Shown here: piece by piece, positions 5,028-28,314 of the stretch | How the letters are laid out: each line of letters opens with the position of its first letter | Position numbering within the stretch: position 1 is the first letter of the stretch | Source of the DNA: Acidobacteriota bacterium | Lineage (GTDB): Bacteria; Acidobacteriota; Thermoanaerobaculia; UBA5066 | Direction: 5' to 3' | Assembly: GCA_029567505.1 (NCBI GenBank) | Contig: JAKPXO010000136.1 | Span: 11,545-75,544, forward strand | Length of the DNA stretch: 64,000 nucleotides | Position numbers and translations under genes: made by a program | The notes under the pieces: generated by a model | What the model saw: only the letters and a program-made list of their open reading frames with translations | The model's database searches: none | Told to the model about the DNA's origin: nothing

Positions 5028-6947
5028 TCACGCGGACGGCGCGAGCGGGCGCGTGAGCGCCGCGAACGTCGCGGGCCAGGAGGACGGGCGGGCGGCGTCG
5101 CGGGCGAGCGCGGTACCGGGGAAGTAGGGCGCGACGGCCTCGCCGAGCCGCGCGGCGAGGGGGAGGTCCCCGGCGTCGCGCGCGGCGAGCGCGCGGACGA
5201 CGAGGACGGAGGGGCCGCTCACGCGCTCCTCGGGCAGGGAAGCGAACGCCGCGCGGAGCGCTTCGGTCCGGCGGAGAAGCCGCAGGCTCTCGAGGAGGAG
5301 GGCGTCGGAACCCTCCCCGGGGTCGAGGCGTGCGAGCTTCCGGGCGAGGTCGAGCCCCCGTTCGAGCCGTCCCGTCTCGTGCGCCCGGCCGACCTGCTCG
5401 GAGAGGGCGGCGAGGTAGACGGAGAACGACGCCGGGTCCGCGATCCCCCGCCCGAGCGCACGGCCGAAGAAGCTCCACCCGAGCGGCGGCGCGACGACGT
5501 CGGCGAGCTCCGGCGGGAACGGCACGAGGCGAGGCCCGAGCCCGGGCCGCGTCTCGTACCAGGGGGGGCGGGCGAGCCGGTCCGCCCGGCTCTCCGCGGA
5601 GCGCGGCGCCGAGGCGGCCGCGTACCACGGGTAGAGGAGGAACGGCGAGGCGAGCGGCTCCTTCGAGAGGACGTTCTCGGGGGAGACGCTCGGCCTTCCG
5701 GCGTCGTCGGGGCCGACGGCGAGGGCGGGGACCTCGCGCTCGAGCTCCGGCGTGAGCGGGGCGCGCCGGCAGTTCGCGACGTAGGTGTCGACGAGCGAGG
5801 GGTGGACGAGGAGAGGCGGCAGGTTGAGCGTCACGGAGAGGACCGCGACGGCGCGCCGGCCCCCGGCGCCGAGGCCCTCGGCGGCGAGCGCGGCCCACGG
5901 CGCGAGGAGCGGCACGGCGGGGACGAGGAGACGCGGTCCCCAGCCCCCGACGCCGTGCCAGGCCCACCAGGCGGCGGCGGTCCCCAGCAGGGCGAGGAAC
6001 GCGAGCGCCGAGCCGGCCGCGGCGAGGCGGAGCGGCGCGTCGCCCGGGCGGCGGAGCGCGTGCGAAAGGGCCGCCGCGGCGAGGAGCGCGGCCGGGAAGA
6101 AGAGGACGAGGCCGCGGTTCGGCCCCACGAGGAGCCGCCAGAGGCCGTCGGGGAGCGGGTGGGTGAAGCCTTCCCCTTCGTAGCCGGCGAAGAGGCGGCC
6201 GAACCGGTGGAGCTCGAAGGCGACCCAGGCGGCGACGGGGAGGAAAGCGCCGACCGCGGCGGCCGCGAGCCGCCGCCCGCGGAGCGCGGACGCCGCGAGG
6301 AGCGGGAGGAGCAGGGCGGGCGCCACGGCGGCGAGGCTCGACTTGATTAGGAGCGCGGCTCCGGCGGCGAGGCCCGCCGCGAACGCGCGGCGGCGAGAGG
6401 CGCGCGGGTCGCTCTCTCGGGCGGCGCCGAGGGCGAGGAGGAGGGCGCCGGCGAGAGCGGCCGCCTGGAGTGCTTCGGAGAAGTCGGAGGTGGCGTACGA
6501 CCCGAGCGGCCCGCCGAGCGAGGCGAGGAGGACGGCGAGGCCCTGGAGGGAGGTCGAGGCGCCGGCCAGCCGCGCGATCCCGCCTGCGGCGGCCGCCGCG
6601 AGGAGGACCCCCGCGAGCGGCGCGAGGAGGAAGAGCGGCTGCGAGGTGCCGGGCCCGAACGCGCTCTCCACGGCGGGCGCGGCGGCTGCCGCCGGGAGCT
6701 GGGCGAGGCTCGCCCCGAGGCCGTAGCGCGAGACGGCGTCGGCCTCGCGCTCGAACGCGCGCGGGGCTCCCTTCCCGATCCCGAGCTCGCCCGTCTCGAC
6801 GATCGCGACCGCCGTGCCGATCGTCTGGCGGCCGTCGGAGACCTTCCCCGCGTGCCGGTCGTCGGCCGAAAGGAGAAGCGCCGCGGCGACGGCGAGGAGC
6901 GCTCCGCGGGCGGGGCGCGGCCGGGCGGGGACGGACCGGGGCGGCAC
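5028..6947 (-). CDS. Multi-pass membrane protein, probable GT-C (lipid-carrier-dependent glycosyltransferase-like)
   Basis: Only the 3' part of track ORF 5028..7949 looks coding; GTG start chosen at 6947. Many hydrophobic segments, and motifs SRYGLG, DFSEAL, GWGPRLLVP typical of ArnT/PMT-like proteins. Confidence 0.6.
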   Translation of the reverse strand: MPPRSVPARPRPARGALLAVAAALLLSADDRHAGKVSDGRQTIGTAVAIVETGELGIGKGAPRAFEREADAVSRYGLGASLAQLPAAAAAPAVESAFGPGTSQPLFLLAPLAGVLLAAAAAGGIARLAGASTSLQGLAVLLASLGGPLGSYATSDFSEALQAAALAGALLLALGAARESDPRASRRRAFAAGLAAGAALLIKSSLAAVAPALLLPLLAASALRGRRLAAAAVGAFLPVAAWVAFELHRFGRLFAGYEGEGFTHPLPDGLWRLLVGPNRGLVLFFPAALLAAAALSHALRRPGDAPLRLAAAGSALAFLALLGTAAAWWAWHGVGGWGPRLLVPAVPLLAPWAALAAEGLGAGGRRAVAVLSVTLNLPPLLVHPSLVDTYVANCRRAPLTPELEREVPALAVGPDDAGRPSVSPENVLSKEPLASPFLLYPWYAAASAPRSAESRADRLARPPWYETRPGLGPRLVPFPPELADVVAPPLGWSFFGRALGRGIADPASFSVYLAALSEQVGRAHETGRLERGLDLARKLARLDPGEGSDALLLESLRLLRRTEALRAAFASLPEERVSGPSVLVVRALAARDAGDLPLAARLGEAVAPYFPGTALARDAARPSSWPATFAALTRPLAPSA

Positions 6948-7031: not shown

Positions 7032-8153
7032 ATGAACGCCTCCTCCCCGGACGACGTCTCCCGATCCTCCGCGCCCCTCTCCGGCGCCCCTCGCCTGGTG
7101 GCGAGCCCCTACCTCCACTTCGACGGCTGGCAGGTCGTCAACCCGCTCACGAACGTGACCCTGACCCCGACGGACCGCCTCTTCGCCCCGCTCCACGAGC
7201 TCCGGGGCGGCCGCCCTGTCGACGGCGCGATCGAGCGGGAGCTTCGGGCCGGGCTCTGGGCGATCCCGGACGGCGAGGACCTTTCCCACCGGTTCCGCCT
7301 CAAGGTCGTCTCTCTCGAGGCGCACTCCGTCTGCAACCAGGCCTGCTACTTCTGCCCGGTTTCGGTCGCCCCCCGCGAGAAGAGCTTCATGCCGACCGAG
7401 CTCTACGAGCGGATCGTCGCGGAGCTCTCCGCCTTCCGCGACTCGATCGAGGGCGTCTGCATGAACAACTACAACGAGCCGACGGTCGACCGCCGGTTCG
7501 TCCAGCAGGTGGCGACGATCAAGGCGGCGGGCCTTCCGCCGGCCGTCCTCTCGAACGGCTCCGGCCTGACGCCGGACCGGGTCGACGCGCTCCTCGGCCT
7601 CGGCGGCCTGCGCTACCTCTCGGTCAACATCTCGACGCTCGAGAAGGACCGCTACGCCCGGGATCGGGGCGTCGACCAGCTCGAGACCGTCGTCCGCAAC
7701 ATCGACTACATGCGCGACAAGCCGGTCGCGCAGGAGATGGACCTCGTCGTCCTCGGCGGGGGGGACGAACCGCACCGGAAGGCCCACCGGGAGATCACCG
7801 AGCGGTACGGCGGGAGCCGCTTCAACGTCCGGCCGTTCGAGGCGCGGGACCGCGCGGGGTGGCTGCCGAACGGAGTCCGGCCTGCCGAGAAGCACCGGAA
7901 GCTGCGGGGATGCGACAACGTCGGCTCGCGGCCGCTGGAGCACCTCCACGTCACGGCGGAGGGGAAGTGCATCTTCTGCTGCGAGGACTACGACGAGAAG
8001 CTCGTCGTGGGCGACCTGAAGACGCAGAGCGTCCGGGAGGTCCTGGAGGGGCCGGCCCTCGCCCTCCTGCGGCGGTGGTCGTACGGCGTCGAGGAGGCCC
8101 CGGACGACTTCATCTGCCGTTCGTGCATCGCCGCCCGGACCGAAGGTGAGTGA
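7032..8153 (+). CDS. Radical SAM protein with SPASM/twitch domain (rSAM-1)
   Basis: CxxxCxxC = CNQACYFC. C-terminal cysteines: GCDN, GKCIFCCED, CRSC. Confidence 0.88.
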   Translation: MNASSPDDVSRSSAPLSGAPRLVASPYLHFDGWQVVNPLTNVTLTPTDRLFAPLHELRGGRPVDGAIERELRAGLWAIPDGEDLSHRFRLKVVSLEAHSVCNQACYFCPVSVAPREKSFMPTELYERIVAELSAFRDSIEGVCMNNYNEPTVDRRFVQQVATIKAAGLPPAVLSNGSGLTPDRVDALLGLGGLRYLSVNISTLEKDRYARDRGVDQLETVVRNIDYMRDKPVAQEMDLVVLGGGDEPHRKAHREITERYGGSRFNVRPFEARDRAGWLPNGVRPAEKHRKLRGCDNVGSRPLEHLHVTAEGKCIFCCEDYDEKLVVGDLKTQSVREVLEGPALALLRRWSYGVEEAPDDFICRSCIAARTEGE

Positions 8154-9327
8154 CGCCGCCTTCGCCTTCGAGGGGCTTTCGAAGGTCTACCGCCTCTATG
8201 CGTCTCCCCGCGACCGCCTCCTCGAGGCGATCACGGGGCGCCCGCGGCACACTCCGGTCCACGCGCTCCGGGGCGTCTCCGCGACCGTCCTCCGCGGCTC
8301 GGTCCTCGGGGTCATCGGCGAGAACGGCTCCGGGAAGTCGACGCTCCTGAAGATCCTCGCGGGGACGACGGAGCCGACCTCCGGGACGGTCCATCTCCCC
8401 GGGCGCGTCGCCGCGATCCTGGAGCTCGGCTCCTCGTTCCACCCGGAGGTGACCGGCCGCCGGAACGCGGTCCTGCAGGCCGCGCTCGCCGGCCTCACGA
8501 AGGCCGAGATCGCGGCGGCCCTTCCCGAGATCGAGGCCTTCGCCGAGCTGGGAGACTTCTTCGACCGGCCCGTGAGGACCTACTCCTCGGGCATGACGAT
8601 GCGGCTCGCGTTCGCCGTCGCGACGGCGGTCCTCCCCGACGTCGTGATCCTCGACGAGGCTCTCGCCGTGGGCGACGGGCGCTTCCAGAAGAAGTGCGTC
8701 GACCGCCTCCACGACCTCCGCTCGCGCGGCCGGACGATCTTCCTCTGCAGCCACGCCCTCTACTACGTCTCCACGCTCTGCGAGACGGCGATCTGGCTTC
8801 GGGACGGGGAGGTCGCCGCGCTCGGCGAGGCCCAGAAGGTCGTCCTCCAGTACGAGGAGTACCTCGCGCGCAAAGAGCAGGAGCGGACCGTGGCGGCCCC
8901 GGCGGCGCTCCAGGACTCGCTCGGCCGGTTCACGTCGATCCGGCTCCTTGACGGGGCCGGGAAGGAGACGGCCGCCTTCGCACCGGGGGACCCCTGGGTC
9001 CTGGAGCTCGCGTTCGAGGGGGACACGCCGGAGCGTCCCCTCCACGTCCACGTCGCCGTCGTCACGCCGGACCAGGTCACCTGCTTCGTCGCCGACTCGA
9101 AGGTCTCCGGCACGGGGCCCTTCGTCGGGAAAGCGCGCCACGAGATCCGGCTGTCGGTGGAGTCCCTCCCGCTCGCGAAGGGGGAGTTCATCCTCGTCAT
9201 CTTCCTCGGCGACGAGAAGGGCCTCGCCCTCTACGACGCCCGGAGCGACGTTCGGTTCCGGGTGGAGTCGGACCGCTGGACGAGCGGCTTCATGACGGTC
9301 CCGGTCGGCTGGGAGACGCTCGGATGA
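8146..9327 (+). CDS. wzt: Polysaccharide export ABC transporter ATPase with C-terminal Wzt_C domain
   Basis: Walker A GENGSGKS, signature YSSGMTMRLAFA, Walker B ILDEALAVGD..FQKKC, and a ~130-aa C-terminal beta-rich extension. Start overlaps the upstream stop. Confidence 0.9.
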   Translation: MSDAAFAFEGLSKVYRLYASPRDRLLEAITGRPRHTPVHALRGVSATVLRGSVLGVIGENGSGKSTLLKILAGTTEPTSGTVHLPGRVAAILELGSSFHPEVTGRRNAVLQAALAGLTKAEIAAALPEIEAFAELGDFFDRPVRTYSSGMTMRLAFAVATAVLPDVVILDEALAVGDGRFQKKCVDRLHDLRSRGRTIFLCSHALYYVSTLCETAIWLRDGEVAALGEAQKVVLQYEEYLARKEQERTVAAPAALQDSLGRFTSIRLLDGAGKETAAFAPGDPWVLELAFEGDTPERPLHVHVAVVTPDQVTCFVADSKVSGTGPFVGKARHEIRLSVESLPLAKGEFILVIFLGDEKGLALYDARSDVRFRVESDRWTSGFMTVPVGWETLG

Positions 9328-10397
9328 AGGTCGTCTACCTCCTCAACGGCACCGCGCTCTGCGGCGGGGTGAAGGTCGTCTACCAGCACGTCGCGATCCT
9401 GCGCCGCCTCGGCGTCGACGCCGAGGTCGTGGCCACCACGCCGCCGAGCGACTGGGCGCCGGAGTCGTGGTCGTTCTACCGGCAGGTCCCCGACCTGACG
9501 CCGGAGGCGATCGGGCCGGCCGACGTCGCGGTCGGCACGATGTACCACACCGTTCCGCAGGCGATGGCCGTGCCGGGAGCGCGCCCCTTCCACCTCTGCC
9601 AGGCCTACGAGGCGATCTACGAGCCGGCGCGTCCGCTCTGGCCCGAGATCGAGGAGGTCTATCGCCTCCCGGCGACGAAGCTCGTCGTCTCGCCACACCT
9701 CGCGGACCTCGTGAGGGAGCTCTACGGGCAGGAAGCGATCCACATCCCCCAGCCGTTCGACGCCGACGCCTTCTCGCCGCGGAGCGGGGAGCGCCCGCAG
9801 GACGGGACGTTCCGGGTCCTCCTGACGGGGCAGTGGAGCGTCCCCTTCAAGGGGATCCCCTGGGCGACGGCGGCGCTCCGCGCGCTGAAGGCCGAGATTC
9901 CGCGGCTCCGGCTCGTCCGGATGTCGCAGGACGCTCCCGCCGAGGAGGTGGCCGCCTGGCCGGAGGCGGAACGGCACATCTGGGTGCCGCCCGCCTTCGT
10001 CCCCGACGTCTACCGGAACGTCGACCTCTTCCTTGGCCCGTCGACGGAGGTCGAGGGGTTCGGCCTGCCGACGATCGAGGCGATGTCGTGCGGCCTCCCG
10101 TCGGTCCTGACCGACATCGGGGCCTTCCGCGGCATCGACCCGGACGCGCGGGCCTCGATCCGGATCCCGGTCTTCGACGCCGGGGCGCTCCAGGCGGCGG
10201 TGCGGCGCCTCGCGGACGATCCCGGCCTCTGCGCCCGGCTCGGCCGCGAGGGACGGGAGATCGCCCGGACCTTCCACTCCGATCGGACCGGCGAGGCGCT
10301 CCTGGCGGCGTTCCGCGCGCGGCCGGCAGGCGCCGGGTCGGGTCTACGCCGGGCCGCGCGCGCGCTGGTGTCCTTCGGCCGGGGAAGCGCCGGGTGA
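9324..10397 (+). CDS. Glycosyltransferase family 4 (GT-B)
   Basis: GGVKVVYQH near the N-terminus and the GT4 motif EGFGLPTIEAMSCGLP. ATGA overlap with wzt. Confidence 0.88.
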   Translation: MKVVYLLNGTALCGGVKVVYQHVAILRRLGVDAEVVATTPPSDWAPESWSFYRQVPDLTPEAIGPADVAVGTMYHTVPQAMAVPGARPFHLCQAYEAIYEPARPLWPEIEEVYRLPATKLVVSPHLADLVRELYGQEAIHIPQPFDADAFSPRSGERPQDGTFRVLLTGQWSVPFKGIPWATAALRALKAEIPRLRLVRMSQDAPAEEVAAWPEAERHIWVPPAFVPDVYRNVDLFLGPSTEVEGFGLPTIEAMSCGLPSVLTDIGAFRGIDPDARASIRIPVFDAGALQAAVRRLADDPGLCARLGREGREIARTFHSDRTGEALLAAFRARPAGAGSGLRRAARALVSFGRGSAG

Positions 10398-10518
10398 CGG
10401 CACGGCCCCGTGGAGCGCTCGTTCGCTCGACGGGGAGACGGAGGCCCGCCGGGACGCTGGGATACCATCCTGAAGGAATGAGACGGATGCGCATCCATCG
10501 ACCCCGCGGGAGGCGCTC

Positions 10519-11439
10519 GTGGCCGACGTGAAGACGACCTGCGAGACGGTGGTCTTCTGCTCCTCTGCGGGCCACTGCCAGCTCGACTGCGACTACTGCA
10601 TCATCCATCCCGTCGTCAAACGGGAGCCGTCCCTCGCCTACGAGGACCTGCGCTTCTTCCTCGACGAGGTCGGGACGCGGACGTTCTTCATCTTCTCTGG
10701 CAAAGGGGACTTCTTCGCCGGCTACCCGAAGCGGGACCGTTTCCTCGACCGGCTCCTCGACCACGACGTCGAGGTGGCGCTCGACGTGAACGGCGTCCTC
10801 CTGAACGAGTACCCGGAGCTTTCCGAGGAGAAGCTCGCGAAGGTCCGCGCGATCAACCTGACGCTCCACTACAAGCAGGTGCGGGACAAGCGCGTCGAGA
10901 AGGCCTGGGAGGCGAACGCGCGGACGATCCTCGAGAAGCACCGGGGCGAGCTGATCCTCGGGACGATCTTCTCGCCGCTCCTCTCCGACCTCTGGGAGGA
11001 GGGGCTCGCGTATTACCGCGACACGGTCTTCGCGGCGACCAGCCGGAAGGTCTGGGCGATCCGGGACTGCGACCGGCCGTTCGACCCGGCGCAGGAGGAG
11101 CTCTTCTCGAGCCTCCTCGAGCGCTACTCCGGCATCGTGGAGAAGGAGCACAAGGACGACTTTTCCGCGCCGTTCGCCGGGAAGGAGGCGGTCCTCTGCC
11201 CGGCCGGGCGCGACTACTTCCGGATCTGGAACGACGGGCGCGTACAGGGCTGCCCCTGGATTCCCGGCCTCGCGGACCTCGGGAACGTGAAGGAGCGCCG
11301 GCTTGCGCGGCGAGCGGCCCCCTTCCGGTGTACGACACCGAGCTTCTGCGACTGCTACGACATCCACCAGCTGGGGAAGATGGGCTACGAGGACGCGACC
11401 CCGGCACTGCCCGTCCTCTCCTCCGGGACCGCGCGATGA
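10519..11439 (+). CDS. Radical SAM protein (rSAM-2), atypical
   Basis: CQLDCDYC near the N-terminus. C-terminal CPAG...GRVQGC...CTTPSFCDC. GGAGG RBS; TACCAT -10-like hexamer upstream. Confidence 0.8.
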   Translation: MADVKTTCETVVFCSSAGHCQLDCDYCIIHPVVKREPSLAYEDLRFFLDEVGTRTFFIFSGKGDFFAGYPKRDRFLDRLLDHDVEVALDVNGVLLNEYPELSEEKLAKVRAINLTLHYKQVRDKRVEKAWEANARTILEKHRGELILGTIFSPLLSDLWEEGLAYYRDTVFAATSRKVWAIRDCDRPFDPAQEELFSSLLERYSGIVEKEHKDDFSAPFAGKEAVLCPAGRDYFRIWNDGRVQGCPWIPGLADLGNVKERRLARRAAPFRCTTPSFCDCYDIHQLGKMGYEDATPALPVLSSGTAR

Positions 11440-12422
11440 GCGACGCCGTCCCGCAGGGCGCGGAGCTCGAGGTCCGCGCGCTCTTCCGGGACGAGGCGGC
11501 GGAGGCCCACGCCGAGCGGCGCGCCCGGCTCGCCTCCGACGACCCGGACCGCTGGGAGGGGATTGCCTTCCCGGTCGAGTTCGCGCTCGAGCTGGCCGCC
11601 GTCTGCAACCTCGCGTGCGTCATGTGCCCCGTGCCGACGACGAGCCGGAAGCGGCGCCTCATGGACGAGGCGCTGTTCCGGAAGAGCGTGGACGAGATCG
11701 CCTCGGAGACGGGCTTCGTCCTCTTCCCGCAGGGATTCGGAGAGCCGATGCTCCACCCGAAGTGGGCGGAGCTCCTCGCCCACGCGAAGGCGAAGGGGAT
11801 CGGGCCGATCGTCGTCCTGACGAACGGGACGCTCCTCGACGAGCGGAACGTGGCGCGGCTGCTCGACCTCGACCTCGACGCGGTGGTCGTCTCGATCGAC
11901 GGCGTCGAGCCGGAGACCTACGCGGCCGTGCGGGTCGGAGGGGACCTCGGCGTCGTCGAGGCGAACGTCCGGCGGTTCCTGGCCGCCCGCGGCGCCGCGG
12001 CGCGCCCGCGCCTCGTCCTCCGGATCATCCGGATGAAGGAGACCGCGGCCCAGATCACCGCCTTCTTTGATCGGTGGAGGCCGCTTCTCGGCCCCGCGGA
12101 CGAGATCGCGATCAACGAGTTCAACGACTGGGCCGGGAAGGTCGAGGACCGGAGCGACGCGTCGCGTCCGCAGCCGGCCGCCGCGACGGAGCGCCGCCCG
12201 CCGTGCCGGATGCTCTGGATGAACCTCTCCGTCCACGCCGACGGCAAGGTCTCGGCGTGCTGCCACGACAGCGAGGACGAGCTGATCGTCGGCGACCTCG
12301 CGAAAGGGGACACGGTCCGCGGGATCTGGGAGGGGCCGGCCCTCGCCCGCTTGCGCCGGATCCACCGCGAGGGGCGCTTCGAGGAGCTGCCGATCTGTCA
12401 CGCCTGCCGCAACCAGGCGTAG
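11436..12422 (+). CDS. Radical SAM protein with SPASM/twitch domain (rSAM-3)
   Basis: ATG at 11436 overlaps the rSAM-2 stop. CNLACVMC, GFGEPMLHP, PCRMLW, GKVSACCHD, CHAC. Confidence 0.9.
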   Translation: MSDAVPQGAELEVRALFRDEAAEAHAERRARLASDDPDRWEGIAFPVEFALELAAVCNLACVMCPVPTTSRKRRLMDEALFRKSVDEIASETGFVLFPQGFGEPMLHPKWAELLAHAKAKGIGPIVVLTNGTLLDERNVARLLDLDLDAVVVSIDGVEPETYAAVRVGGDLGVVEANVRRFLAARGAAARPRLVLRIIRMKETAAQITAFFDRWRPLLGPADEIAINEFNDWAGKVEDRSDASRPQPAAATERRPPCRMLWMNLSVHADGKVSACCHDSEDELIVGDLAKGDTVRGIWEGPALARLRRIHREGRFEELPICHACRNQA

Positions 12423-12441
12423 ACGGCCGCTCGTCGGCTCC

Positions 12442-13407
12442 TCAGAAGACGTCGTGGTCGGCGAAGCGGTAGTCGAGCGTCGCGCCCGGGGCGAGGAAGT
12501 CGAAGCCGTCGGCGATCGGGTGCATGAGGAGGACCGTGTCCGACGGCTCGGGCACGAACGCGAGCTCCCCCTCGAGACGGGACGCGAGGAGCCCTCGCTG
12601 GGGGGAGCGAAGGACCATCCGGTCCGCCGCGATCGCCCCGAGCCGCTCCTGGACCGCCGCGAGCAGGTCGACGAGCGTGCCGTCGGACTCGGAAGCGACC
12701 TGCAGGTCGACGAGGGCGGCGCGCCCCTCGCGGATCGCGACGACGGCGTACCCGCGCGATGTCCCGCGCCAGTCGAGGAGCTGGAACGTCCGGTAGGCGA
12801 AGCCGGGACGCGAGAAGCGCCAGGCGAGCGTGGGGGCCGAGCGGTCGGTCCGCCAGCCGGGCCGCGCGTGGAGGAGCTCGGCGAGCGGCTCGTGCGCGCG
12901 ACCGAACGGCTCCCCCTCGCTCACGCGGAGGAGCCGGCGCCGCAGCCGTCCGAGGAGCGGCGGTGCGTCGAGCCGGCGGCCCCGCTCCGCGCACGGCTCG
13001 GCCAGGACGCAGCCGAAGAGGCGTTCCTCGATCTTCCTCGCGCGCGCGTTCGGGAAGCCGAAGTCGAAGAGCGTCCCGGCCTCCGCGTTGATCCGCCGGA
13101 AGAGCTCGCCGAGCCGCTTGAACATCCCCGCCCGCCCGAGGGCGCGCGAGTCGGGGCGCGTCATGACGTCGACGACCGTGTTCCCCCGCTGGTCCATCGC
13201 CTCGCCCCGGTAGCGCGTCCCGAGGGCCCCGATGAAGCCGAGCGCCCGGCCGTCCTCGATCGCGAGGGCGCTGAGCGCCGGGTGGGGGTTGACGTCGTAC
13301 TTCCAGGCGAGGTCGGCGGCATTCGCCGGCGCCTTGAACGCCACCTCGAAAAGCTCCAGGATGGCGGCCCGATCGCTCTTCCCGGCCGGTCGGAATTCGA
13401 TCGCCAC
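12442..13407 (-). CDS. GNAT-family N-acyltransferase
   Basis: N-terminal FRPAG.SD..AILEL, DVMTRPDSR..G..G acetyl-CoA-loop-like segment, FGFPN motif. Confidence 0.72.
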   Translation of the reverse strand: MAIEFRPAGKSDRAAILELFEVAFKAPANAADLAWKYDVNPHPALSALAIEDGRALGFIGALGTRYRGEAMDQRGNTVVDVMTRPDSRALGRAGMFKRLGELFRRINAEAGTLFDFGFPNARARKIEERLFGCVLAEPCAERGRRLDAPPLLGRLRRRLLRVSEGEPFGRAHEPLAELLHARPGWRTDRSAPTLAWRFSRPGFAYRTFQLLDWRGTSRGYAVVAIREGRAALVDLQVASESDGTLVDLLAAVQERLGAIAADRMVLRSPQRGLLASRLEGELAFVPEPSDTVLLMHPIADGFDFLAPGATLDYRFADHDVF

Positions 13408-13430
13408 GGCGCGCGGAAGGGTACCACCCG

Positions 13431-14492
13431 ATGATCTCAGCCGTCTTCGTCTCCTATCGCAGCGCCACGCTCACCGCGCGCGCGATCGCGACGTTCCGCG
13501 AGGAGGCGCGCCGCGCCGGACGGGAGGCCGAGGCGGTCGTGGTCGTGAACTCGGGCGACGCCGCCGAGCGCGACGCCCTCGTCCCTCACGCCGACCGGGT
13601 CCTCTTCCCGCCCCGGAACCTCGGCTTCGCCGGGGGGCTGAACGCCGGGATTGCGGCCGCGCGCGGCGGGACGCTCCTCCTCGCGAACCCCGACCTCCTC
13701 TTCTGCGAGGGCTCGGTCGCGGCGCTCACCGCGGCGGTCGAAGCCGGCGGACCCGTCGCGGCCGGGCCGGCGCTCTGGGCCGACACCGCGCGGAGCGTCC
13801 TCCTTCCCCCGGCGGAGGAGGGGCGCCCCGAGGAGCTGGCGCGCCGGGCGCTCGCGGCCGACCCGGCGCGCGCGGACCGCGTCTTCCGGCGCGACGCCCG
13901 GCGGGCGGCGGCTCAGGCGGAGCGGGCCGCTGCCGGCGCGAGCGCCGTCGTCCGCGGTCTCTCCGGGGCCGCCGTCGCCGTCACCCGCGCGACGCTCGGG
14001 GCGGTCGGGCCGTTCGACGAGGGATACCCGCTCTACTACGAGGAGAACGACTGGCAGAGGCGGCTTCTCCTGCGCGGGGGCCGGCTCGTCTTCGTCGGCG
14101 GCGCGCACGTCGTCCACCTGTTCGCGCAGAGCACGAAGACCGAGCCGAGGGCCGGCTCCTGGTTCGCGGAGTCGGAGGCGAGGTACTACGCGACCCACTT
14201 CGGCGAGGTGGGGAAGAGGGGTCTCGCGCGCCTCGCCGCCTGCGCGTCGTTCGAGGCGCCGCCGCTCCCCGCCGCCGAAGGCCTCGCGTGGAGCGACCCG
14301 GCCCCGGCGGCGGTCGCGATCTCGCCGTTCCGCCACTTCCGGCCGTTCGCGCTCGCCCTCGTGCCGACCGACGAGAGGCGCTGGACGCCCCCGGCCGACC
14401 TCGCCGAGGCGCACTCCGGAGAGGCCCTCTTCCTTCGAGCCTTCGCGCGGGCGACGGGCGCCACTCTCGCCGAGGTCCGCTTCGCGGGATGA
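13431..14492 (+). CDS. Glycosyltransferase family 2
   Basis: ISAVFVSYR, NLGFAGGLNAG, ANPD, LYYEENDW. Confidence 0.85.
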   Translation: MISAVFVSYRSATLTARAIATFREEARRAGREAEAVVVVNSGDAAERDALVPHADRVLFPPRNLGFAGGLNAGIAAARGGTLLLANPDLLFCEGSVAALTAAVEAGGPVAAGPALWADTARSVLLPPAEEGRPEELARRALAADPARADRVFRRDARRAAAQAERAAAGASAVVRGLSGAAVAVTRATLGAVGPFDEGYPLYYEENDWQRRLLLRGGRLVFVGGAHVVHLFAQSTKTEPRAGSWFAESEARYYATHFGEVGKRGLARLAACASFEAPPLPAAEGLAWSDPAPAAVAISPFRHFRPFALALVPTDERRWTPPADLAEAHSGEALFLRAFARATGATLAEVRFAG

Positions 14493-14535
14493 AGCGGCGG
14501 CTCGCCGGGACCCCCGGCCGGTAGAATCGCGCCGC

Positions 14536-17500
14536 GTGGCGCCCCCTTCCCCGGATCCCTTTCCCGAGCGACGACTCCTCCCCTACGAGACGACCCGCCT
14601 CGAGGCGCGGCGCGTCCTCGTCCTGGCGCCGCATGCCGACGACGAGACGTTCGGCTGCGGCGGGGCGCTCGCCGCCCTTCTCGACGGCGGCGCGCGGCTC
14701 GACGTCCTCGTCGTGACCGACGGCGCGGGGGACGAGGCGGATACTGCGGCTCGGCGGCTCGTCGGCGAGCGGCGGCTCGAGGAGACGCGCGAGGCGCTCC
14801 GCCGGCTCGGGGGAGGAGCGGCGCGCTGCGCCTTCCTCCCGGACCGCGGGCTCGGTCTCGCCGGGGAGTCGCTCGCGGCGGCGCTCGAGGGCGAGTTCCT
14901 CGCGACGAGACCCGACCTCGTCTTCGTCCCCTCGCCGGTCGAGATCCATCCCGATCACCGCGCGGTCGCGGAGGCGTTCCTCTCCCTCTTCGCGGGCGAG
15001 GCCGGCCGTCGCTTCGCCGCCGCGCTCCCGGACGGCGCGCGCGCCGCTTTCTACGAGGTCTCCCAGCCGTTCCGTCCGAACGTCCTCGTCGACGTCTCGA
15101 GGACGGTCGCGCGCAAGGAGGCGGCCGTCGCGGCGTTCGTCTCGCAGCTCGGCGGCCACGACTACGCGGCGTTCGCGCGGGGGCTGGGGCAGTACCGGCG
15201 GATGAGCCTTCCCCGGAGCGTGGCGTCGGCGGAAGGGTTCTTCCTCGTCGCGCTCGCCCACCTGCCCTCCCTCGATCCCCTCCGCCTTGCGCGGGCGATC
15301 GGTCCGACGCTCTCCGTCGAGGAGCTCCTCCCGCCGCAGGCCCGATCGGTCGAGGAGGAGACGCCGTCCGGCGCGGCCGTCGTCGCTCCCGTCGCGGAGG
15401 CGCAGGCCCGGCCTCTCGTCAGCGTCGTCGTCCGGACGAAGGACCGTCCCGAGCTCCTCGCCGAGGCGCTCGAGAGCGTCGCGTCGGAATCGGGCGTACC
15501 GCTCGAGACGGTCGTCGTGAACGACGGCGGCGCCGACGTCGCCGACGTCCTCGCGCGGTTCCCGCAGCTCCGCCTCCGTCTCGTCGATCTCCGGCCGGGG
15601 CGTGGCCGAGCGGCGGCGGCGAACGCGGGGGTCGAGGCCGCGACCGGGCGCTTCGTCCACTTCCTCGACGACGACGACCTGCTCCTCCCGGGCGGGCTCC
15701 CGGCGCTCGCCGCGGAGGCGCGAGAGGGCGAGGTCGTCTACGGGCGCGTCGAGGCGTTCCGCTGGAGCGGGACCGGGGAGGGACGGCTCCGGACGCCGTT
15801 CCGTTCCTTCGCCGAGCCGTTCGACGAGGCGGCGCTCCTCCTCGAGAACTTCATTCCGATGAGCGCGCCTCTACTCCCGCGGGAGGCGCTGCTCGGCGCC
15901 GGCGGTCTCGACGCGGCGCTTCAGCGCTTCGAGGACTGGGACCTCTTCCTCCGCCTCTCGCAGACGCACCGCTTCCGCCTCGTCGACGTCCCCGTCTCGG
16001 AGTACCGCGTCTTCCCGGGACACTTCGTCGACGACCCCGACGCCGCGACGACGCAGGAGCGGCACCGCGTCGACGTCCTCCGCAAGCACGCCGGCCGCTA
16101 CGGGCCGGAGACGCTCTCGGCGATCCTCCTCCACGTCAAGAAGGACCTCCTGCCGAGGGAGGTCCGGCGGGAGGTCGCCGCGGTCGAGCGGCTCCTGTCG
16201 CACGCGACGGAGGAGTCGGCCCGCGAGAGGGACCGACTCGAGGCGGAGCGGACCGACGCGGAGCGCCGCGCGGGGCGGACGCTCGCGACGCGGGCCTCGG
16301 TCGTCGTCGTCAACTTCGACGGCCGGCACCACCTCGAGAAGTGTCTCCCCGCCCTCGAGGCGTCGGACCCGAAGCCGGGAGAGGTGATCCTCGTCGACAA
16401 CGGCTCGTCGGACGACAGCGTCGCGTGGGTCCGCGAGCACCACCCGGCCGTGAAGGTCCTGCCGATGGGGGCGAACCTCGGCTTCGGCGAGGCGAACCGG
16501 CGCGGCGCGCTGGAGGCGCGCGGCGACTTCCTCGTCCTCCTGAACTCCGACACGGTCGTCGAGGAGGGCTGGCTCGCGGGGCTCCTCGCGCCTCTCGAGG
16601 CGGAGCCGGAGATCGCGGCGACCTGCTCGACGCTCCGGCTCCTCGCGACGCCGGAGCTCCTGAACGGCCTCGGGGGCGGGATGACGCGCCTCGCCTACGC
16701 GTTCGACCACGGCTACCGCTTCCCGTACGCGCCGTGGCCGCCGTCGGGCGAGGAGCCGCGCTGGCACGACGTCCTCTTCCCGACAGCCGCGGCGATGGCG
16801 ATGCGCCGCCACGAGTTCTTCGGCCTCGGCGGCTTCGACCCGGCGTTCTTCATGTACCACGAGGACGTCGACCTCGGCTGGAGGCTCTGGATTCTCGGAC
16901 GGCGGGTCGTCGTCTGCCGGGACTCGGTCGTGCGGCACGCGTTCCTCGGGACCTCGAAGGCCGTCCGGGGGCTCGACTGGAGGCTGAAGCTCGGCGTCCG
17001 TCACGCCGTCCGCTCGATCCTGAAGTACGTCGAGCCGCTCGAGGCGGCGAAGGTCCTCCGGTGGCACGCGGTGGTCCTGGCACGGGCCGGCGCGTGGCGA
17101 CTCCTCGGTCACACCGTCCTCTGGAACCTCCGGCACCTGCCGGGGACGCTCCGCCTCCGCGCCGCCATGAGCGCGGGGCGGAAGCGGTCCTCGGAAGACC
17201 TCCGTCGCGCGGGCCTCGTCCTTCGGGCGCTTCAGCCGCCTCCACCGCCCGAGGCGCCGCGATTCCGCGAGGAGGGGCCCGACGCCTGGATCGTCTCGAA
17301 CGTCCTCCTCCCGGGCGAGCCCTCGGGCGAGAGCCGTCTCGGCTGGGGCTGGTACGGGCCGGAGCACGACGGGACGGCCTCGTTCCGGTGGACCGTCGGC
17401 GACGCCCGGCTCGGAATGCGTGTGGCGGCGGGAGCCGAGGGGCGCCTTCGCATCGCCGCGATCGGCAGCCCGGCCGCGCCCGCCGGTCCGCTCCGGGTGA

Positions 17501-18618
17501 CGTGCAACGGGCGCGAGGCGGAGGCGGCGCTCGAGCCGGGCGCCTGGCGCGAGGTCGAAGTCCAAGTTTCCGCGGGCGCGGACGGCCTCCTCGACGTCGT
17601 CCTCCGCTCCCCGTCCGGGGTGCCGGACGAGGTCCACGGAAGCTGGGACTTCCGCAGGCTCGGGGCCGGCGTTCGGAGCGTCGCATTCGTCCCGGCCTCG
17701 CCCGAGGAGCGTCACCCTCCCGCGAGGCTCTCCGTCGTCATCCCGACGTACGAGCGGAAGGCGGTCCTCGAGGAGACGGTTCGCGCCCTCGCGGCGCAGA
17801 GCGCCCGGCCGTTCGAGGTGATCGTCGTCGACGACGGCTCGAACGACGGGACGACGGACCTTCTCCATCGCCTCCGGGAGGAGCTCTCCGACCGTCTCGA
17901 CCTCGTCCCGCTCCGACAGCCGAACCTGAAGCAGGGGCGGGCGCGGAACCTCGGCGTGGCGCGGGCGAAGGGGGAGCTCGTCCTCTTCCTCGGGGACGAC
18001 ACGATCCCGGAGCCCGCCTGCGTCGCCGAGCACCTCGCCGCGCACGCGTCCCGTCCCGGCCCCTGTGCCGTGATCGGCTTCACCGGCTGGCACCGGGAGA
18101 AGATGCGGGTGACGCCGTTCCTCGACTTCGTCAACGGCCACGGTCCGCAGTTCTCGTTCGACCTCCTCCGCGACGGCCAGGAGGTCCCGTTCACGACGCT
18201 CTACACCTCGAACGTCTCGATCCCGCGCGAGCACCTCGGCGCCGAGCCGTTCGACCACCGCTTCACGTCGTACGGCTGGGAGGACTGCGAGCTCGGCTGG
18301 CGCCTCTCCTCGGCGGGCCTGCCGATCGTCTACCGGAAGGCCGCCGCCACCCGGCACGTCCACCCGCAGACGATGGCGCAGTTCCTGGCGCGGCAGGCGC
18401 ACGTCGGCCGGGCGATCGACGTCCTCTACGAGATCCACCCGGAGCTCGAAGGGAACCGCTGGCTCCCCCCGCCGCGTCCGCGCTTTCGCCACAGGGCCTT
18501 CTCGTTCGCGTATCGCGCCCTGGGGCGGGTCGGCGCGCTCCTCGACTCGGCCGGGGTGCCGCTCCCGCTGCGCGCCTACCACGCGCTCGTTGGGTGGGCT
18601 TTCCACTCCGGCCGCTGA
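14536..18618 (+). CDS. PIG-L de-N-acetylase fused to three GT2 domains (1360 aa)
   Basis: GTG at 14536, 8 nt after TAGAAT. PIG-L: APHADDE..G, HPDH. GT2-1: SVVVRTKDR/FLDDDD/EDWD. GT2-2: SVVVVNFDG/LNSD/MYHEDVD. GWY..E..RWT beta-domain. GT2-3: SVVIPTYER/FLGDD/YGWED. Confidence 0.88.
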   Translation: MAPPSPDPFPERRLLPYETTRLEARRVLVLAPHADDETFGCGGALAALLDGGARLDVLVVTDGAGDEADTAARRLVGERRLEETREALRRLGGGAARCAFLPDRGLGLAGESLAAALEGEFLATRPDLVFVPSPVEIHPDHRAVAEAFLSLFAGEAGRRFAAALPDGARAAFYEVSQPFRPNVLVDVSRTVARKEAAVAAFVSQLGGHDYAAFARGLGQYRRMSLPRSVASAEGFFLVALAHLPSLDPLRLARAIGPTLSVEELLPPQARSVEEETPSGAAVVAPVAEAQARPLVSVVVRTKDRPELLAEALESVASESGVPLETVVVNDGGADVADVLARFPQLRLRLVDLRPGRGRAAAANAGVEAATGRFVHFLDDDDLLLPGGLPALAAEAREGEVVYGRVEAFRWSGTGEGRLRTPFRSFAEPFDEAALLLENFIPMSAPLLPREALLGAGGLDAALQRFEDWDLFLRLSQTHRFRLVDVPVSEYRVFPGHFVDDPDAATTQERHRVDVLRKHAGRYGPETLSAILLHVKKDLLPREVRREVAAVERLLSHATEESARERDRLEAERTDAERRAGRTLATRASVVVVNFDGRHHLEKCLPALEASDPKPGEVILVDNGSSDDSVAWVREHHPAVKVLPMGANLGFGEANRRGALEARGDFLVLLNSDTVVEEGWLAGLLAPLEAEPEIAATCSTLRLLATPELLNGLGGGMTRLAYAFDHGYRFPYAPWPPSGEEPRWHDVLFPTAAAMAMRRHEFFGLGGFDPAFFMYHEDVDLGWRLWILGRRVVVCRDSVVRHAFLGTSKAVRGLDWRLKLGVRHAVRSILKYVEPLEAAKVLRWHAVVLARAGAWRLLGHTVLWNLRHLPGTLRLRAAMSAGRKRSSEDLRRAGLVLRALQPPPPPEAPRFREEGPDAWIVSNVLLPGEPSGESRLGWGWYGPEHDGTASFRWTVGDARLGMRVAAGAEGRLRIAAIGSPAAPAGPLRVTCNGREAEAALEPGAWREVEVQVSAGADGLLDVVLRSPSGVPDEVHGSWDFRRLGAGVRSVAFVPASPEERHPPARLSVVIPTYERKAVLEETVRALAAQSARPFEVIVVDDGSNDGTTDLLHRLREELSDRLDLVPLRQPNLKQGRARNLGVARAKGELVLFLGDDTIPEPACVAEHLAAHASRPGPCAVIGFTGWHREKMRVTPFLDFVNGHGPQFSFDLLRDGQEVPFTTLYTSNVSIPREHLGAEPFDHRFTSYGWEDCELGWRLSSAGLPIVYRKAAATRHVHPQTMAQFLARQAHVGRAIDVLYEIHPELEGNRWLPPPRPRFRHRAFSFAYRALGRVGALLDSAGVPLPLRAYHALVGWAFHSGR

Positions 18619-18736: not shown

Positions 18737-20125
18737 ATGACCCATCCGAGACTCTCCAGCACGTCCTCCCGGGCGAAGACCTGGTCGCGCCCGGGCCTCG
18801 CCGGCGCGCTCCTCGCGTTGCCGGCCCTCCTCGTCGCGACCTCGGCGGTCGCGCAGCGCGAGCCGGGGACGGCCTCGCCGGACACGGGGTCCGCTCCGGC
18901 GCCCTCCTACTCGGCGCCGGCGCCGTCCTACTCCGCTCCATCGCCCTCCCACTCCTCTCCGTCGCCGTCCTATTCCGCGCCCGCCCCTTCGGCGCCGCGA
19001 AGCGCTCCGGCGCCCTCGGCCGGGTCACCCTCCACGCCCCGCCGCGCGACCGCCCCGAGGGAATCGACCTCGGGGACGCCGGCGCGCCCGGGAAGGCGCG
19101 TCGTCGGCGCCGAGCCGCGGGACGGGCGGAGCGGCGGCCCGACGACCGCGACGGCAGGCGGCGGGGGCAGCCGGGTCCCGCGAATCGTTCCGACGCATCC
19201 GCGCGGCTCCGGCTCGGGCGGGCATCACCATCCGCGCCGCCGCTACTACTCGCCGTACGCCGGCTGGGGCGGGACGTCGTGGTGGTGGGGTGGCCCGTGG
19301 GACTGGTGGTGGTGGGGAAGCCGCTTCGGCCCGTACCACTGGGGCTTCGGCGGCGTCGTCATCGTCGAGGACTACAGCCCGGACCCGAACCGGTACGCGC
19401 GGGTCGACACCGACGTCAGCCCGGAGGCGGCGGAGGTCTACCTCGACGGCACGTTCATCGGCTCGGCCGACGACTTCGACGGCTACCCCGACTTCCTCTG
19501 GCTCGAGGAGGGGAAGTACACGCTCGAGTTCCGGCATCCCTCGTACGAGACCGTCAAGCACGACCTGGAGGTCGAGCCGGGACAGAGCCTCCGTTTCCGG
19601 GACGACCTGAAGCTCGAGCCGGGCAAGAGGAGGCTCGAGGCGGTCGAGCCTCCGCGACGCGGCACGCCTCACGGGCGGGTCTTCGGCAAGCCCGAGGAGC
19701 CCCGCCGCGACAGGACCGGCCGGTTCGAGGCACGGGCCGAGGCCGACCGGGAGCGTGACCTCGAGGAGCTCGAAGACCTCGAGGAGCTCGAGGAGCTGGC
19801 CGAGGAGCTGGACGAGGCGGACGAGGACCTCGCCCCGGCGCCGAAGGTCCGGGGCGAGGTGAAGGAGGGGCGCTCCGGTCGCGAGGCGCTTCCCGCCGAG
19901 CGGTCCCGGCTGCGCTTCGAGATCGAGCCTTCCGACGCGGCGGTCTATCTCGACGACGACTACGTGGGCACGGGAAAGGAGCTCGCCGGCCTGAGCCGCG
20001 GCGTCCCGGTCGACGCCGGAAAGCACACCGTCTCCGTCGTCCGCCCGGGCTTCGTCACGAAGACGATCGAGGTCGAGGTGAAGCCGGGGGTCGCGATCGA
20101 CGTCGTCGTCGAGCTCGAGAAGTAA
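18737..20125 (+). CDS. Secreted PEGA-domain protein with Pro/Ser-rich N-terminus
   Basis: Signal-like helix ending in AVA-Q, SAPAPSY repeats, a Trp/Gly-rich patch, and two PEGA-like domains (VSPEAAEVYLDG; IEPSDAAVYLDD..G..GKHTVSVVRPGF). Confidence 0.8.
   Translation: MTHPRLSSTSSRAKTWSRPGLAGALLALPALLVATSAVAQREPGTASPDTGSAPAPSYSAPAPSYSAPSPSHSSPSPSYSAPAPSAPRSAPAPSAGSPSTPRRATAPRESTSGTPARPGRRVVGAEPRDGRSGGPTTATAGGGGSRVPRIVPTHPRGSGSGGHHHPRRRYYSPYAGWGGTSWWWGGPWDWWWWGSRFGPYHWGFGGVVIVEDYSPDPNRYARVDTDVSPEAAEVYLDGTFIGSADDFDGYPDFLWLEEGKYTLEFRHPSYETVKHDLEVEPGQSLRFRDDLKLEPGKRRLEAVEPPRRGTPHGRVFGKPEEPRRDRTGRFEARAEADRERDLEELEDLEELEELAEELDEADEDLAPAPKVRGEVKEGRSGREALPAERSRLRFEIEPSDAAVYLDDDYVGTGKELAGLSRGVPVDAGKHTVSVVRPGFVTKTIEVEVKPGVAIDVVVELEK
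18890..18995 (+). repeat. Degenerate 21-nt coding tandem repeat (about 5 copies; SAPAPSY-like heptads)
   Basis: Translation reads SAPAPSY-SAPAPSY-SAPSPSH-SSPSPSY-SAPAPSA. Boundaries are approximate. Confidence 0.7.
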
Positions 20126-21777: not shown

Positions 21778-21885
21778 GAGGCGCGATTCTCGCATGCAGG
21801 CGGCACGGCTCGCCGAACCGGCCGGGATGGCCTCCGTATACTTCGTGCGCCCCCCGACGCGAGAGCCGATCGAGAGAAGAGTGCC

Positions 21886-24450: not shown

Positions 24451-24487
24451 CTTTCCGAGGGCCCGGTGGCCCGGAAGGGACCAGTCC

Positions 24488-25906: not shown

Positions 25907-25907
25907 G

Positions 25908-27395: not shown

Positions 27396-27493
27396 GACAC
27401 CGGGGCATAATGTCCCATGCCGCGTAAGCAATTGGACCAGAGCTATTTGTGCGACTGCGAGCTTTCGATCCAAGCGGGATGTGGCATTATGCC
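27384..27493. promoter_or_regulatory. Cluster of palindromes, candidate upstream activator sites
   Basis: GTGTCTAATTAGGACAC (27384-27400), GGGGCATAATGTCCC (27402-27416) and GGCATTATGCC (27483-27493). The last two are related motifs in opposite orientation. Confidence 0.5.
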
Positions 27494-27521
27494 GCTATCC
27501 CTTCGGGCGACGATCGGGGGC

Positions 27522-27560
27522 GTTGTTGTAAGTAGCTGTAAACAAGGTGTTTAGATAGAA
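27522..27560. promoter_or_regulatory. AT-rich IHF-like bending segment between palindromes and sigma54 promoter
   Basis: GTTGTTGTAAGTAGCTGTAAACAAGGTGTTTAGATAGAA is AT-rich in a very GC-rich background. It matches WATCAA-N4-TTR only loosely. Confidence 0.35.
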
Positions 27561-27580
27561 TATTCTCGACAGGGTCGTTC

Positions 27581-27595: not shown

Positions 27596-27619
27596 GTCAT
27601 TCCGTCGCGGGAGGAGTCG

Positions 27620-27844: not shown

Positions 27845-27861
27845 CGCGCCGAACACCGCCG

Positions 27862-28305: not shown

Positions 28306-28314
28306 AGGGCGACG

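Follow-up and report, generated by a model that had tools for sequence, protein, structure and literature searches.

ABC-transporter-dependent glycan synthesis is an established type of pathway, exemplified by the Wzm/Wzt systems of E. coli O9a, A. aeolicus (Wzm-Wzt) and G. stearothermophilus (slg), and BtrN-type radical chemistry is known from aminoglycoside biosynthesis. To our knowledge, the radical S-adenosylmethionine (SAM) enzymes with characterised sugar chemistry (BtrN, DesII, BlsE, AprD4 and NeoN) belong almost entirely to antibiotic pathways; radical SAM enzymes are oxygen-sensitive. BtrN, the 2-deoxy-scyllo-inosamine dehydrogenase of butirosin biosynthesis (PDB 4M7T), consists of a radical SAM core and a C-terminal twitch domain and lacks a B12 domain, and DesII and BlsE, both antibiotic-pathway enzymes, give a precedent for the one-step radical tailoring of a nucleotide-linked sugar. 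Here we examined 64,000 nucleotides (the whole stretch, hereafter the window) from a Thermoanaerobaculia/Holophagales metagenome-assembled genome (MAG) of an uncultured soil or sediment acidobacterium (GenBank assembly GCA_029567505.1, contig JAKPXO010000136.1, positions 11,545 to 75,544). At positions 7032–18618 lies a gene cluster in which two BtrN-like radical SAM enzymes, rSAM1 and rSAM3, accompany a Wzt-type ABC ATPase and a family 4 glycosyltransferase (GT4). The locus probably represents a condensed form of a lineage-wide pathway for an ABC-exported surface glycopolymer that is tailored by BtrN-like radical oxidation or epimerisation.

A first-pass annotation, made from the sequence alone, had read the region as a surface-glycan cluster built around three radical SAM enzymes, in the order rSAM1, Wzt-type ABC ATPase, GT4, rSAM2, rSAM3, a GNAT-like gene on the reverse strand, a family 2 glycosyltransferase (GT2) and a protein combining a PIG-L domain with three GT2 domains (PIG-L+3xGT2). 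Genes of the window, which is 73% G+C, were picked by third-position GC (GC3) and then annotated with Pfam and NCBIfam; this recovered exactly the same order, and independent gene calling on an identical 9-kb metagenome contig yields the same genes. The start/stop overlaps described earlier are real and can be read directly from the sequence, rSAM1 and wzt overlapping by 8 nt and the wzt/GT4 and rSAM2/rSAM3 pairs each sharing an ATGA. The PIG-L+3xGT2 gene does not overlap the GT2 gene but starts 44 bp past its end. The largest intergenic gap in the cluster is 122 bp. The earlier statement that no B12 domain, precursor-peptide open reading frame (ORF) or nucleoside diphosphate (NDP)-sugar gene is present agrees with our annotation, and Pfam gave no match to the B12-binding domain (PF02310) in rSAM1, rSAM2 or rSAM3. 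The genes labelled GNAT and rSAM2 do exist, but Pfam support is weak for both: the 321-aa putative N-acyltransferase of Acetyltransf_9 type (12442–13407, reverse strand) matches with E = 0.0097, below the cutoff, and the divergent radical SAM protein rSAM2 (10519–11439, forward strand) matches Radical_SAM at 1.7e-4 and 22 bits against a Pfam cutoff of 29.5.

The relationship to BtrN is most evident for rSAM3 (11436–12422, forward strand; Radical_SAM 1.2e-17, SPASM 3.2e-11). A search of the PDB with the rSAM3 family profile returned BtrN at 4.8e-21, followed by SkfB at 1.6e-8 and then by BlsE and DesII, so that BtrN leads any other solved protein by 12 orders of magnitude; the match takes in the C-terminal twitch domain as well as the radical SAM core. 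The top matches of the single sequence were BtrN, BlsE (9e-8) and DesII (2.4e-7), all of them sugar enzymes, with BlsE and DesII far weaker relatives than BtrN. The N-terminal domain of DesII comprises six helices, and the enzyme lacks an auxiliary cluster (PMC11434129). In rSAM3, the cysteines of the radical SAM cluster (C57, C61 and C64; nt 11604–11627) are invariant, the twitch cysteines are C257, C275-C276, C321 and C324 (nt 12204–12407), and profile positions 252–329 align with the BtrN twitch domain such that all four of its auxiliary-cluster cysteines (C169/C188/C232/C235) are matched. BtrN was also the best PDB match of the rSAM1 profile (6e-13) and the best Foldseek match of the AlphaFold2 (AF2) model of rSAM1 (pLDDT 80; 2.6e-10), for which DesII was another top fold match. 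The rSAM1 gene (7032–8153, forward strand; Radical_SAM 3.6e-14, SPASM 3.4e-8) encodes a CNQACYFC motif whose CxxxCxxC cysteines (C101, C105 and C108; nt 7332–7355) are invariant in the family alignment, as are those of the auxiliary-cluster region C294-x18-C313-x2-C316-C317 ... C362-x2-C365 (nt 7911–8126). Aligned with each other by hhalign (probability 99.4%, E = 1.3e-21) over a stretch that includes both twitch regions, the two families share the motif H..DGK...CC.D.....VGDL, and each has six C-terminal cysteines with BtrN-like spacing plus an extra invariant Cys beside the second ligand. By these comparisons rSAM1 is clearly a paralog of rSAM3, and the twitch domain of each is predicted to supply four Cys ligands for one auxiliary [4Fe-4S] cluster. 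rSAM1 keeps the BtrN spacing C-x18-C ... C-x2-C; both proteins differ from BtrN in the additional Cys (the CC pair), in being extended at the N-terminus (by a domain of 95 aa in rSAM1 and by about 50 aa of helical sequence in rSAM3) and in their genomic setting, an ABC-exporter glycan cluster rather than an aminoglycoside cluster. The nearest characterised relative of both is BtrN and not MoaA, anSME or a peptide maturase, the kinds of family whose recovery the first-pass annotation had named as evidence against a glycan role.

The prevalence of the system was assessed by comparing the window proteins with their relatives and clustering all GC3-supported ORFs from 82 non-redundant loci, denoted here by L numbers. 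rSAM1 has at least 1721 homologues, the best 120 of which are 56–95% identical (about 60%) over nearly the full length. Loci encoding rSAM1 relatives number 234 among GTDB species representatives; the best 80 of these come almost exclusively from Thermoanaerobaculia, Holophagales or other Acidobacteriota MAGs, and three loci are 95–96% identical to the window. Neighbourhoods were counted in the 56 non-redundant loci in which rSAM1 is flanked by 3 kb or more in both directions. A Wzt homologue lay within 3 kb of rSAM1 in 50 of the 56, directly adjoining it on the same strand in 41, and a GT4 gene lay within 5 kb in 48. The canonical Thermoanaerobaculia core runs Wzt-rSAM1-GT2-GT4-GT2-methyltransferase-YfhO-LtaS-like-PIG-L/GT2, where the second GT2 is a small DPM1-like enzyme followed on its 3' side by the methyltransferase gene or genes; genes for a 2OG-Fe oxygenase, a GNAT-like protein and a GT-C-like protein are optional. 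The window carries a condensed version, which retains Wzt, rSAM1, GT4, GT2, the GNAT-like gene and PIG-L/GT2 and lacks the PKD, YfhO, LtaS and methyltransferase genes. Its rSAM2-rSAM3 pair is a clade-specific insertion between GT4 and the GNAT-like gene, shared by the nearest sequenced relatives L007–L009, while L005 has rSAM2 only.

Canonical loci also carry, co-directionally and just 5' of wzt-rSAM1, genes of families F11, F2, F3 and F8 (L002:1–8642; L003:539–6752; many more), comprising an FG-GAP protein, a secreted 446-aa family that lacks a Pfam match and occurs in one to five tandem copies, a giant PKD protein (~1500–1800 aa) and an arylsulfotransferase-like gene; these may be glycosylation targets or matrix proteins, and none of them is encoded in the window. 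In a further subgroup (L020:5583–8426, L022, L043 and L086), the wzt-rSAM1 pair occurs without any glycosyltransferase gene within ~10 kb, adjoining instead genes for a gingipain-like Peptidase_C25 protein and for a membrane protein of GT-C-like type, after which come rho and lon. This subgroup shows wzt-rSAM1 to be the minimal conserved module. A single ORF in L046 (9104–11092) joins the C-terminal two-thirds of Wzt to the whole of rSAM1; we set this fusion aside as a probable indel artefact, because the MAG appears to be derived from long reads and the wzt start is out of frame.

Homologues of rSAM3 (43–67% identity) were read in six independent contexts. GT4 was next to rSAM3 in five of the six and abutted it in four. 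In L090, the system is reduced to an rSAM3-GT4 pair facing Wzt-rSAM1. Another arrangement, found in L091 (annotated as Nitrospirae, 50% GC), L093/L094 and L095/L096 (42–43% GC), has genes for a GNAT (Acetyltransf_9), GT2, Wzt (with Wzt_C) and Wzm on one strand, and for an rSAM3-like enzyme, an abutting GT4 and a methyltransferase on the other, with YfhO, FG-GAP, PIG-L and one more rSAM/SPASM gene nearby. Window proteins are 44–48% (rSAM3), 39–40% over the full length (Wzt; L091, L093 and L095) and 28–30% (GT4) identical to their counterparts in this cassette. Because the same rSAM3-GT4-Wzt cassette recurs in distant lineages, the linkage is ancient and spans phyla. The conservation of context with wzt and glycosyltransferases that the first-pass annotation had proposed to examine is therefore strong for rSAM1, at 50 and 48 of 56 loci, and extends for rSAM3 across distant lineages. 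The rSAM3 homologue of L092 overlaps a gene for an SDR-type NDP-sugar epimerase/dehydratase. The GT4 encoded 3' of the L093 rSAM3 homologue (10973–12955) forms a 660-aa fusion with a class I methyltransferase domain and resembles the bifunctional chain-terminating enzymes of ABC-dependent O-antigen pathways. A small, conserved secreted protein (117–124 aa) is encoded just 5' of the rSAM3-like gene in L091 (9390–9764) and L095 (8813–9166), the two being homologous to each other, and has no counterpart in the window. Genes for 115–124-aa proteins 5' of rSAM genes in L087, L090 and L091 were considered and rejected: they are not all mutually homologous, and the related pair from L091 and L095 encodes secreted proteins that the window lacks.

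The Wzt-type ATPase (8146–9327, forward strand; ABC_tran 5.6e-21, Wzt_C 9.6e-10) has intact Walker A, signature, Walker B and H-loop motifs on reading of its sequence, and its carbohydrate-binding-type Wzt_C domain (PF14524, residues 260–383) scores 39.1 bits against a cutoff of 30.4; its best PDB matches are TarH (3.5e-62) and A. aeolicus Wzt (9e-61). The retaining GT4 (9324–10397, forward strand; Pfam), a conserved partner of both rSAM1 and rSAM3, has PimA (2.3e-13) and MshA (4.2e-10) as its best PDB matches. The GNAT-like gene has an 82% identical orthologue in L005, and equivalent 315–316-aa Acetyltransf_9 genes that do carry PF13527 matches adjoin GT2-Wzt-Wzm in L091 and L093. The 353-aa GT2 (13431–14492, forward strand; PF00535, 24.5 bits against a cutoff of 23.3) belongs to family F5 of the canonical cluster and groups with the GT2 downstream of rSAM1 in 43 loci. 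The 1360-aa PIG-L+3xGT2 protein (14536–18618, forward strand, GTG start; PIG-L 1.6e-21, PF00535 1e-65 over three stretches) has its PIG-L de-N-acetylase domain at about nt 14617–14985 and GT2 domains starting near nt 15403, 16300 and 17722; its translation shows catalytic AHADDE and HPDH motifs and three DxD motifs, making it a candidate glycan polymerase/deacetylase. The window thus has in common with the Wzm/Wzt pathways a Wzt nucleotide-binding domain with Wzt_C, a multi-domain GT2 polymerase-like enzyme and a GT4, and the related cassettes add the adjacent Wzm, methyltransferases and GT4-methyltransferase fusion typical of such pathways. Unlike in the known pathways, Wzt and GT4 here have radical SAM enzymes as integral and conserved partners, and a full-text literature search found no report linking radical SAM/SPASM enzymes with Wzt, O-antigen, lipopolysaccharide or capsule.

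Two flanking genes may extend the unit. Divergent from rSAM1, a gene on the reverse strand (5028–6947) encodes a 639-aa polytopic membrane protein with about 8–9 hydrophobic segments followed by a soluble TPR-like C-terminal region; hydropathy and a weak PMT_2 match (E = 0.012, below cutoff) suggest a GT-C-like fold. Such a gene also adjoins rSAM1 in other members of the clade (L007, L008 and L011); it probably belongs to the unit and is a candidate periplasmic glycan transferase. Directly 3' of the glycosyltransferase genes, 18737–20125 (forward strand) encodes a secreted protein with a signal peptide, SAPAPSY-type Ser/Pro/Tyr repeats, a tryptophan run (WWWGGPWDWWWWG) and two PEGA domains (4.8e-11), and L005 has a 46% identical gene in the same position. 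By its position, this protein may be part of the cluster, and it is a possible glycosylation substrate.

The third radical SAM protein, rSAM2, stands apart. It has a CxxxCxYC motif at residues 20–27 (nt 10576–10599) and a Cys-rich C-terminus, its cysteines are invariant in the family alignment, and its homologues carry PF04055. Matches to it number only 39 among 1.84 billion representative proteins, it has no relative among solved PDB structures, and its alignment with rSAM3 is marginal. One homologue, in a Chromatiaceae genome, lies near GT2, GNAT and PIG-L-GT2 genes; another lies among housekeeping genes; and a third (~66% identity; L088:10001–10918), from a relative of the window organism, sits between a sigma-54 activator and HATPase_c_2/STAS partner-switching genes, at a site that in the window is an empty 467-bp gap (27395–27862). 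From this correspondence, rSAM2 appears to have moved into the glycan cluster. We regard it as a rare, recently recruited orphan whose role in glycan synthesis is uncertain, because the neighbourhoods of its homologues vary. The picture of a cluster built around three radical SAM enzymes accordingly holds for rSAM1 and rSAM3, whose wzt/glycosyltransferase neighbourhoods are conserved, but not for rSAM2, which has no conserved neighbourhood.

Gene content, the conserved partnerships and the homology to BtrN down to the auxiliary-cluster ligands point to radical tailoring of an exported glycan; the substrate, the type of reaction and its coupling to export we infer from these. The earlier proposal of such tailoring is supported in its glycan-cluster setting, in the BtrN-like nature of the enzymes and in their conserved wzt/glycosyltransferase context, while it overstated the part of rSAM2. 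In the pathway we envisage, GT4, GT2 and PIG-L+3xGT2 would build a lipid-linked, GlcNAc-containing polymer at the cytoplasmic face, the PIG-L domain would convert GlcNAc to GlcN by de-N-acetylation, and the GNAT-like protein would probably re-N-acylate the GlcN. rSAM3 would use a 5'-deoxyadenosyl radical to abstract hydrogen from a sugar carbinol carbon, giving a keto-sugar, or an epimer should a hydrogen atom be handed back by the extra conserved Cys of the CC pair; its target would most likely be the donor or the product of the partner GT4. rSAM1 would carry out related chemistry tied to Wzt and may make a terminal feature read by the C-terminal domain of Wzt. Export would be driven by the Wzt ATPase together with a Wzm encoded elsewhere, and the GT-C-like membrane protein may pass the glycan onward in the periplasm. 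In a more specific and distinctly speculative version, which we hold to be doubtful, rSAM1 would dock through its N-terminal domain, as an adaptor, to Wzt or the nascent-glycan machinery and, by oxygen-independent radical chemistry, leave the non-reducing end of the lipid-linked polymer with a keto or epimerised sugar, as a chain-termination and export signal read by the C-terminal domain of Wzt. If true, ABC-transporter-dependent polysaccharide pathways would gain their first radical SAM "cap", and primary envelope biosynthesis its first radical SAM modification of a sugar at the polymer level.

Several observations weigh against a tailored, ABC-exported glycan, the evidence for which consists of sequence and predicted structure. 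No gene for the Wzm (ABC-2) permease was found in the window by tblastn with the L091 Wzm as query, and among ~80 rSAM1 loci the same query found wzm only in L016 and at the edge of L055, most rSAM1 loci having none within 10 kb. In L016 (6415–7059), wzm lies directly 5' of wzt, as it adjoins wzt in the cassettes of L091, L093 and L095; in L055 (4–309), a fragment of wzm is located at the extreme upstream end of the locus, past the genes for the FG-GAP, secreted and PKD proteins. From these positions, insertion of surface-protein genes seems to have separated wzm from wzt in this lineage. Among the GC3-filtered ORFs scanned in the window there was also no NDP-sugar gene, wzm or initiating phosphoglycosyltransferase; Glycos_transf_4, Bac_transf, methyltransferase and kinase matches were absent from it, leaving no recognisable initiator or chain terminator. 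The absence of wzm, shared with most Thermoanaerobaculia loci, and of a kinase/methyltransferase terminator sets the window apart from the known Wzm/Wzt pathways; genes for the initiating phosphoglycosyltransferase and the chain terminator often sit elsewhere in genomes. Neither an aminotransferase nor any other enzyme that would consume a keto-sugar is present. None of the three radical SAM proteins reaches an NCBIfam trusted cutoff, and their best matches are to maturase-type families (tungsten-enzyme maturase, spiro-SPASM and metalloenzyme maturase). Identity to BtrN is low (~17% for rSAM1 in the Foldseek alignment), and the neighbourhood of rSAM2 is neither conserved nor glycan-specific. 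The last such point, the fold of the rSAM1 N-terminal domain, bears on whether the substrate is a sugar; by sequence, an NDP-sugar, a lipid-linked glycan or a protein could each serve.

A protein or peptide substrate is the main rival explanation. rSAM1, and possibly rSAM3, would then be a maturase that cross-links or epimerises amino acids by radical chemistry, with its N-terminal domain as a recognition element for the leader or tail of a protein encoded elsewhere, or for a cluster protein such as the giant PKD protein, the secreted 446-aa family or Wzt itself, while the glycosyltransferases would merely glycosylate the matured product or serve an unrelated glycan. The N-terminal domain of rSAM1 (residues 18–95; nt 7083–7316, forward strand), delimited by family conservation and AF2, has the conserved motif NPFLH...YNPLTDRTL...GWL and, modelled alone (pLDDT 90), forms a beta-beta-beta-alpha-alpha-beta fold, which ranks nearest, though not significantly, to the RiPP (ribosomally synthesised and post-translationally modified peptide) recognition element (RRE). 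Of the top 20 Foldseek matches of the isolated domain in the PDB, 13 were RRE-containing RiPP enzymes (among them TbiB1, ThcOx, lasso B1, TigE, MibB, MadB and McbB), all with E of at least 0.4, and neither Pfam nor a PDB sequence profile search gave a PqqD-like match. The order of a small N-terminal beta/alpha (beta3-alpha) domain, a radical SAM core and a Cys-rich SPASM/twitch domain is that of the RRE-bearing RiPP maturases (SuiB, SkfB, CteB, PqqE/PqqD and MftC/MftB), and SuiB, SkfB and EpeE are good fold matches of the whole rSAM1 protein. In canonical loci, moreover, the multi-copy secreted proteins and PKD giants are encoded just 5' of wzt-rSAM1. Unlike those maturases, rSAM1 has six C-terminal Cys where a full SPASM domain has seven or eight, and its cluster, unlike RiPP systems, contains no precursor peptide, peptidase or leader-type gene, its conserved partners being Wzt and glycosyltransferases. 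Gaps of at most 122 bp in the window leave no space for a precursor, and no conserved small ORF was found within 4 kb on either side of rSAM1 in ~70 loci, where only antisense shadow ORFs were seen. Both the window and L090 keep Wzt and GT4 while having lost or never had the PKD genes and those of the secreted family F2. rSAM3 is the closer BtrN relative yet lacks the N-terminal domain, and neither rSAM2 nor rSAM3 has an RRE-like domain. Half of 18 rSAM1 family members (9/18) weakly match 2C_adapt (PF08793; best E = 6.4e-4) through YNPLTDRTL..G..GY..L, and a search of the domain against BFVD gave nothing significant. The model and these matches suggest that the domain is possibly an adaptor, docking or recognition element, and we consider a peptide maturase unlikely, if the most serious competitor.

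Tailoring of a polysaccharide repeat, which we favour, must also be set against a pathway to a small cyclitol- or inositol-based glycoside or glycolipid anchor, following the logic of mycothiol, glycosylphosphatidylinositol (GPI) anchors or aminoglycosides, in which GT4 would act on an inositol-type acceptor, followed by PIG-L deacetylation, GNAT acylation and BtrN-like oxidation of the cyclitol. The best solved relatives of GT4, PimA and MshA, are inositol-acceptor enzymes, yet these similarities are modest and typical of any GT4. PIG-L is the family of GlcNAc-PI and GlcNAc-Ins deacetylases (BshB1 match 1.2e-19), the substrate of BtrN is an aminocyclitol, and BtrN, BtrM (a GT4) and BtrD (PIG-L family) co-occur in butirosin biosynthesis. 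Pfam and NCBIfam found no inositol-phosphate synthase, 2-deoxy-scyllo-inosose synthase, aminotransferase or Cys ligase in the window, however, and a polymer is indicated by the four or five GT2 domains, by the carbohydrate-binding-type domain of Wzt and by the YfhO, LtaS-like and Wzm genes of related loci, which makes a small cyclitol product improbable. It is more improbable still that the radical SAM proteins are maturases of enzymes or cofactors (anSME-like on LtaS- or sulfatase-type proteins, or acting on a metallo-cofactor) and only indirectly adjacent to glycan genes, for although W_rSAM_matur (2.4e-13 and 4.1e-23) and rSAM_Geo_metal (1.7e-23) are the best NCBIfam matches and 24 related loci contain sulfatase-family genes, the scores are far under the trusted cutoffs (e.g. 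50–82 bits versus 380–400), the rSAM3 profile matches anSME in the PDB at 4.7e-4 versus 4.8e-21 for BtrN, the conserved partner of rSAM1 is Wzt and not a sulfatase, the window has no sulfatase, and 750-aa membrane "sulfatases" are LtaS/OpgB-type transferases that do not need formylglycine.

Other identities were tried and rejected. Scores for anSME, B12-methylase, mycofactocin, MoaA and viperin families were all far below their NCBIfam, Pfam or PADLOC cutoffs. An anSME has a full SPASM domain with two clusters, compared with only six C-terminal Cys here, which together with the weak PDB match and the lack of a sulfatase led us to discard it. For the mycofactocin system, mycofact_rSAM reached 62.6 bits against a cutoff of 265, no MftA, MftB, MftD or MftE was found, and the MftF model scored 207 bits against a cutoff of 280, spread across the three generic GT2 domains. 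A role in anti-phage defence, raised by a "GT4-conflict" Pfam match, was likewise rejected, PADLOC giving generic ATPase matches and a weak pVip match (best 6.5e-11) confined to the radical SAM core.

In the rest of the window, a GGDEF-EAL protein (108–1328) precedes two convergent phosphofructokinase genes immediately 5' of the cluster, one encoding a long 745-aa form with two PFK stretches (1374–3611, forward strand) and the other a 447-aa protein (3613–4956, reverse strand). A block at 21280–31229 is syntenic with L088 and encodes a PDZ-GAF-SpoIIE phosphatase, a TPR protein, a sigma-54 activator, an anti-sigma-type kinase, a STAS protein, a second GAF-SpoIIE phosphatase and a PCMT; it looks like a partner-switching regulatory module beside holB. 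Two long GC3-supported ORFs, at 40452–43841 (1129 aa) and 60768–62756 (662 aa), both on the forward strand, have no Pfam match, and ~2 kb at 36984–38938 is mostly without a GC3-supported ORF and has no Rfam match; Rfam found no RNA family anywhere in the window.

In our full-text search, we found no report of a conserved partnership of BtrN-like radical SAM enzymes with Wzt and GT4 in envelope-glycan loci. Here such enzymes accompany Wzt and GT4 as conserved partners, often with translational coupling, in the surface-glycan loci of hundreds of uncultured Thermoanaerobaculia and of unrelated low-GC lineages. Should they act on proteins instead, glycan export would be connected with maturation of a RiPP-like kind, likewise something new. 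If rSAM1 and rSAM3 act on sugars, they would provide compact two-gene systems (rSAM3-GT4 and rSAM1-Wzt) for new radical carbohydrate reactions and possibly a new kind of export signal, and would define a hitherto unrecognised origin of unusual envelope sugars in bacteria that abound in soil and sediment.

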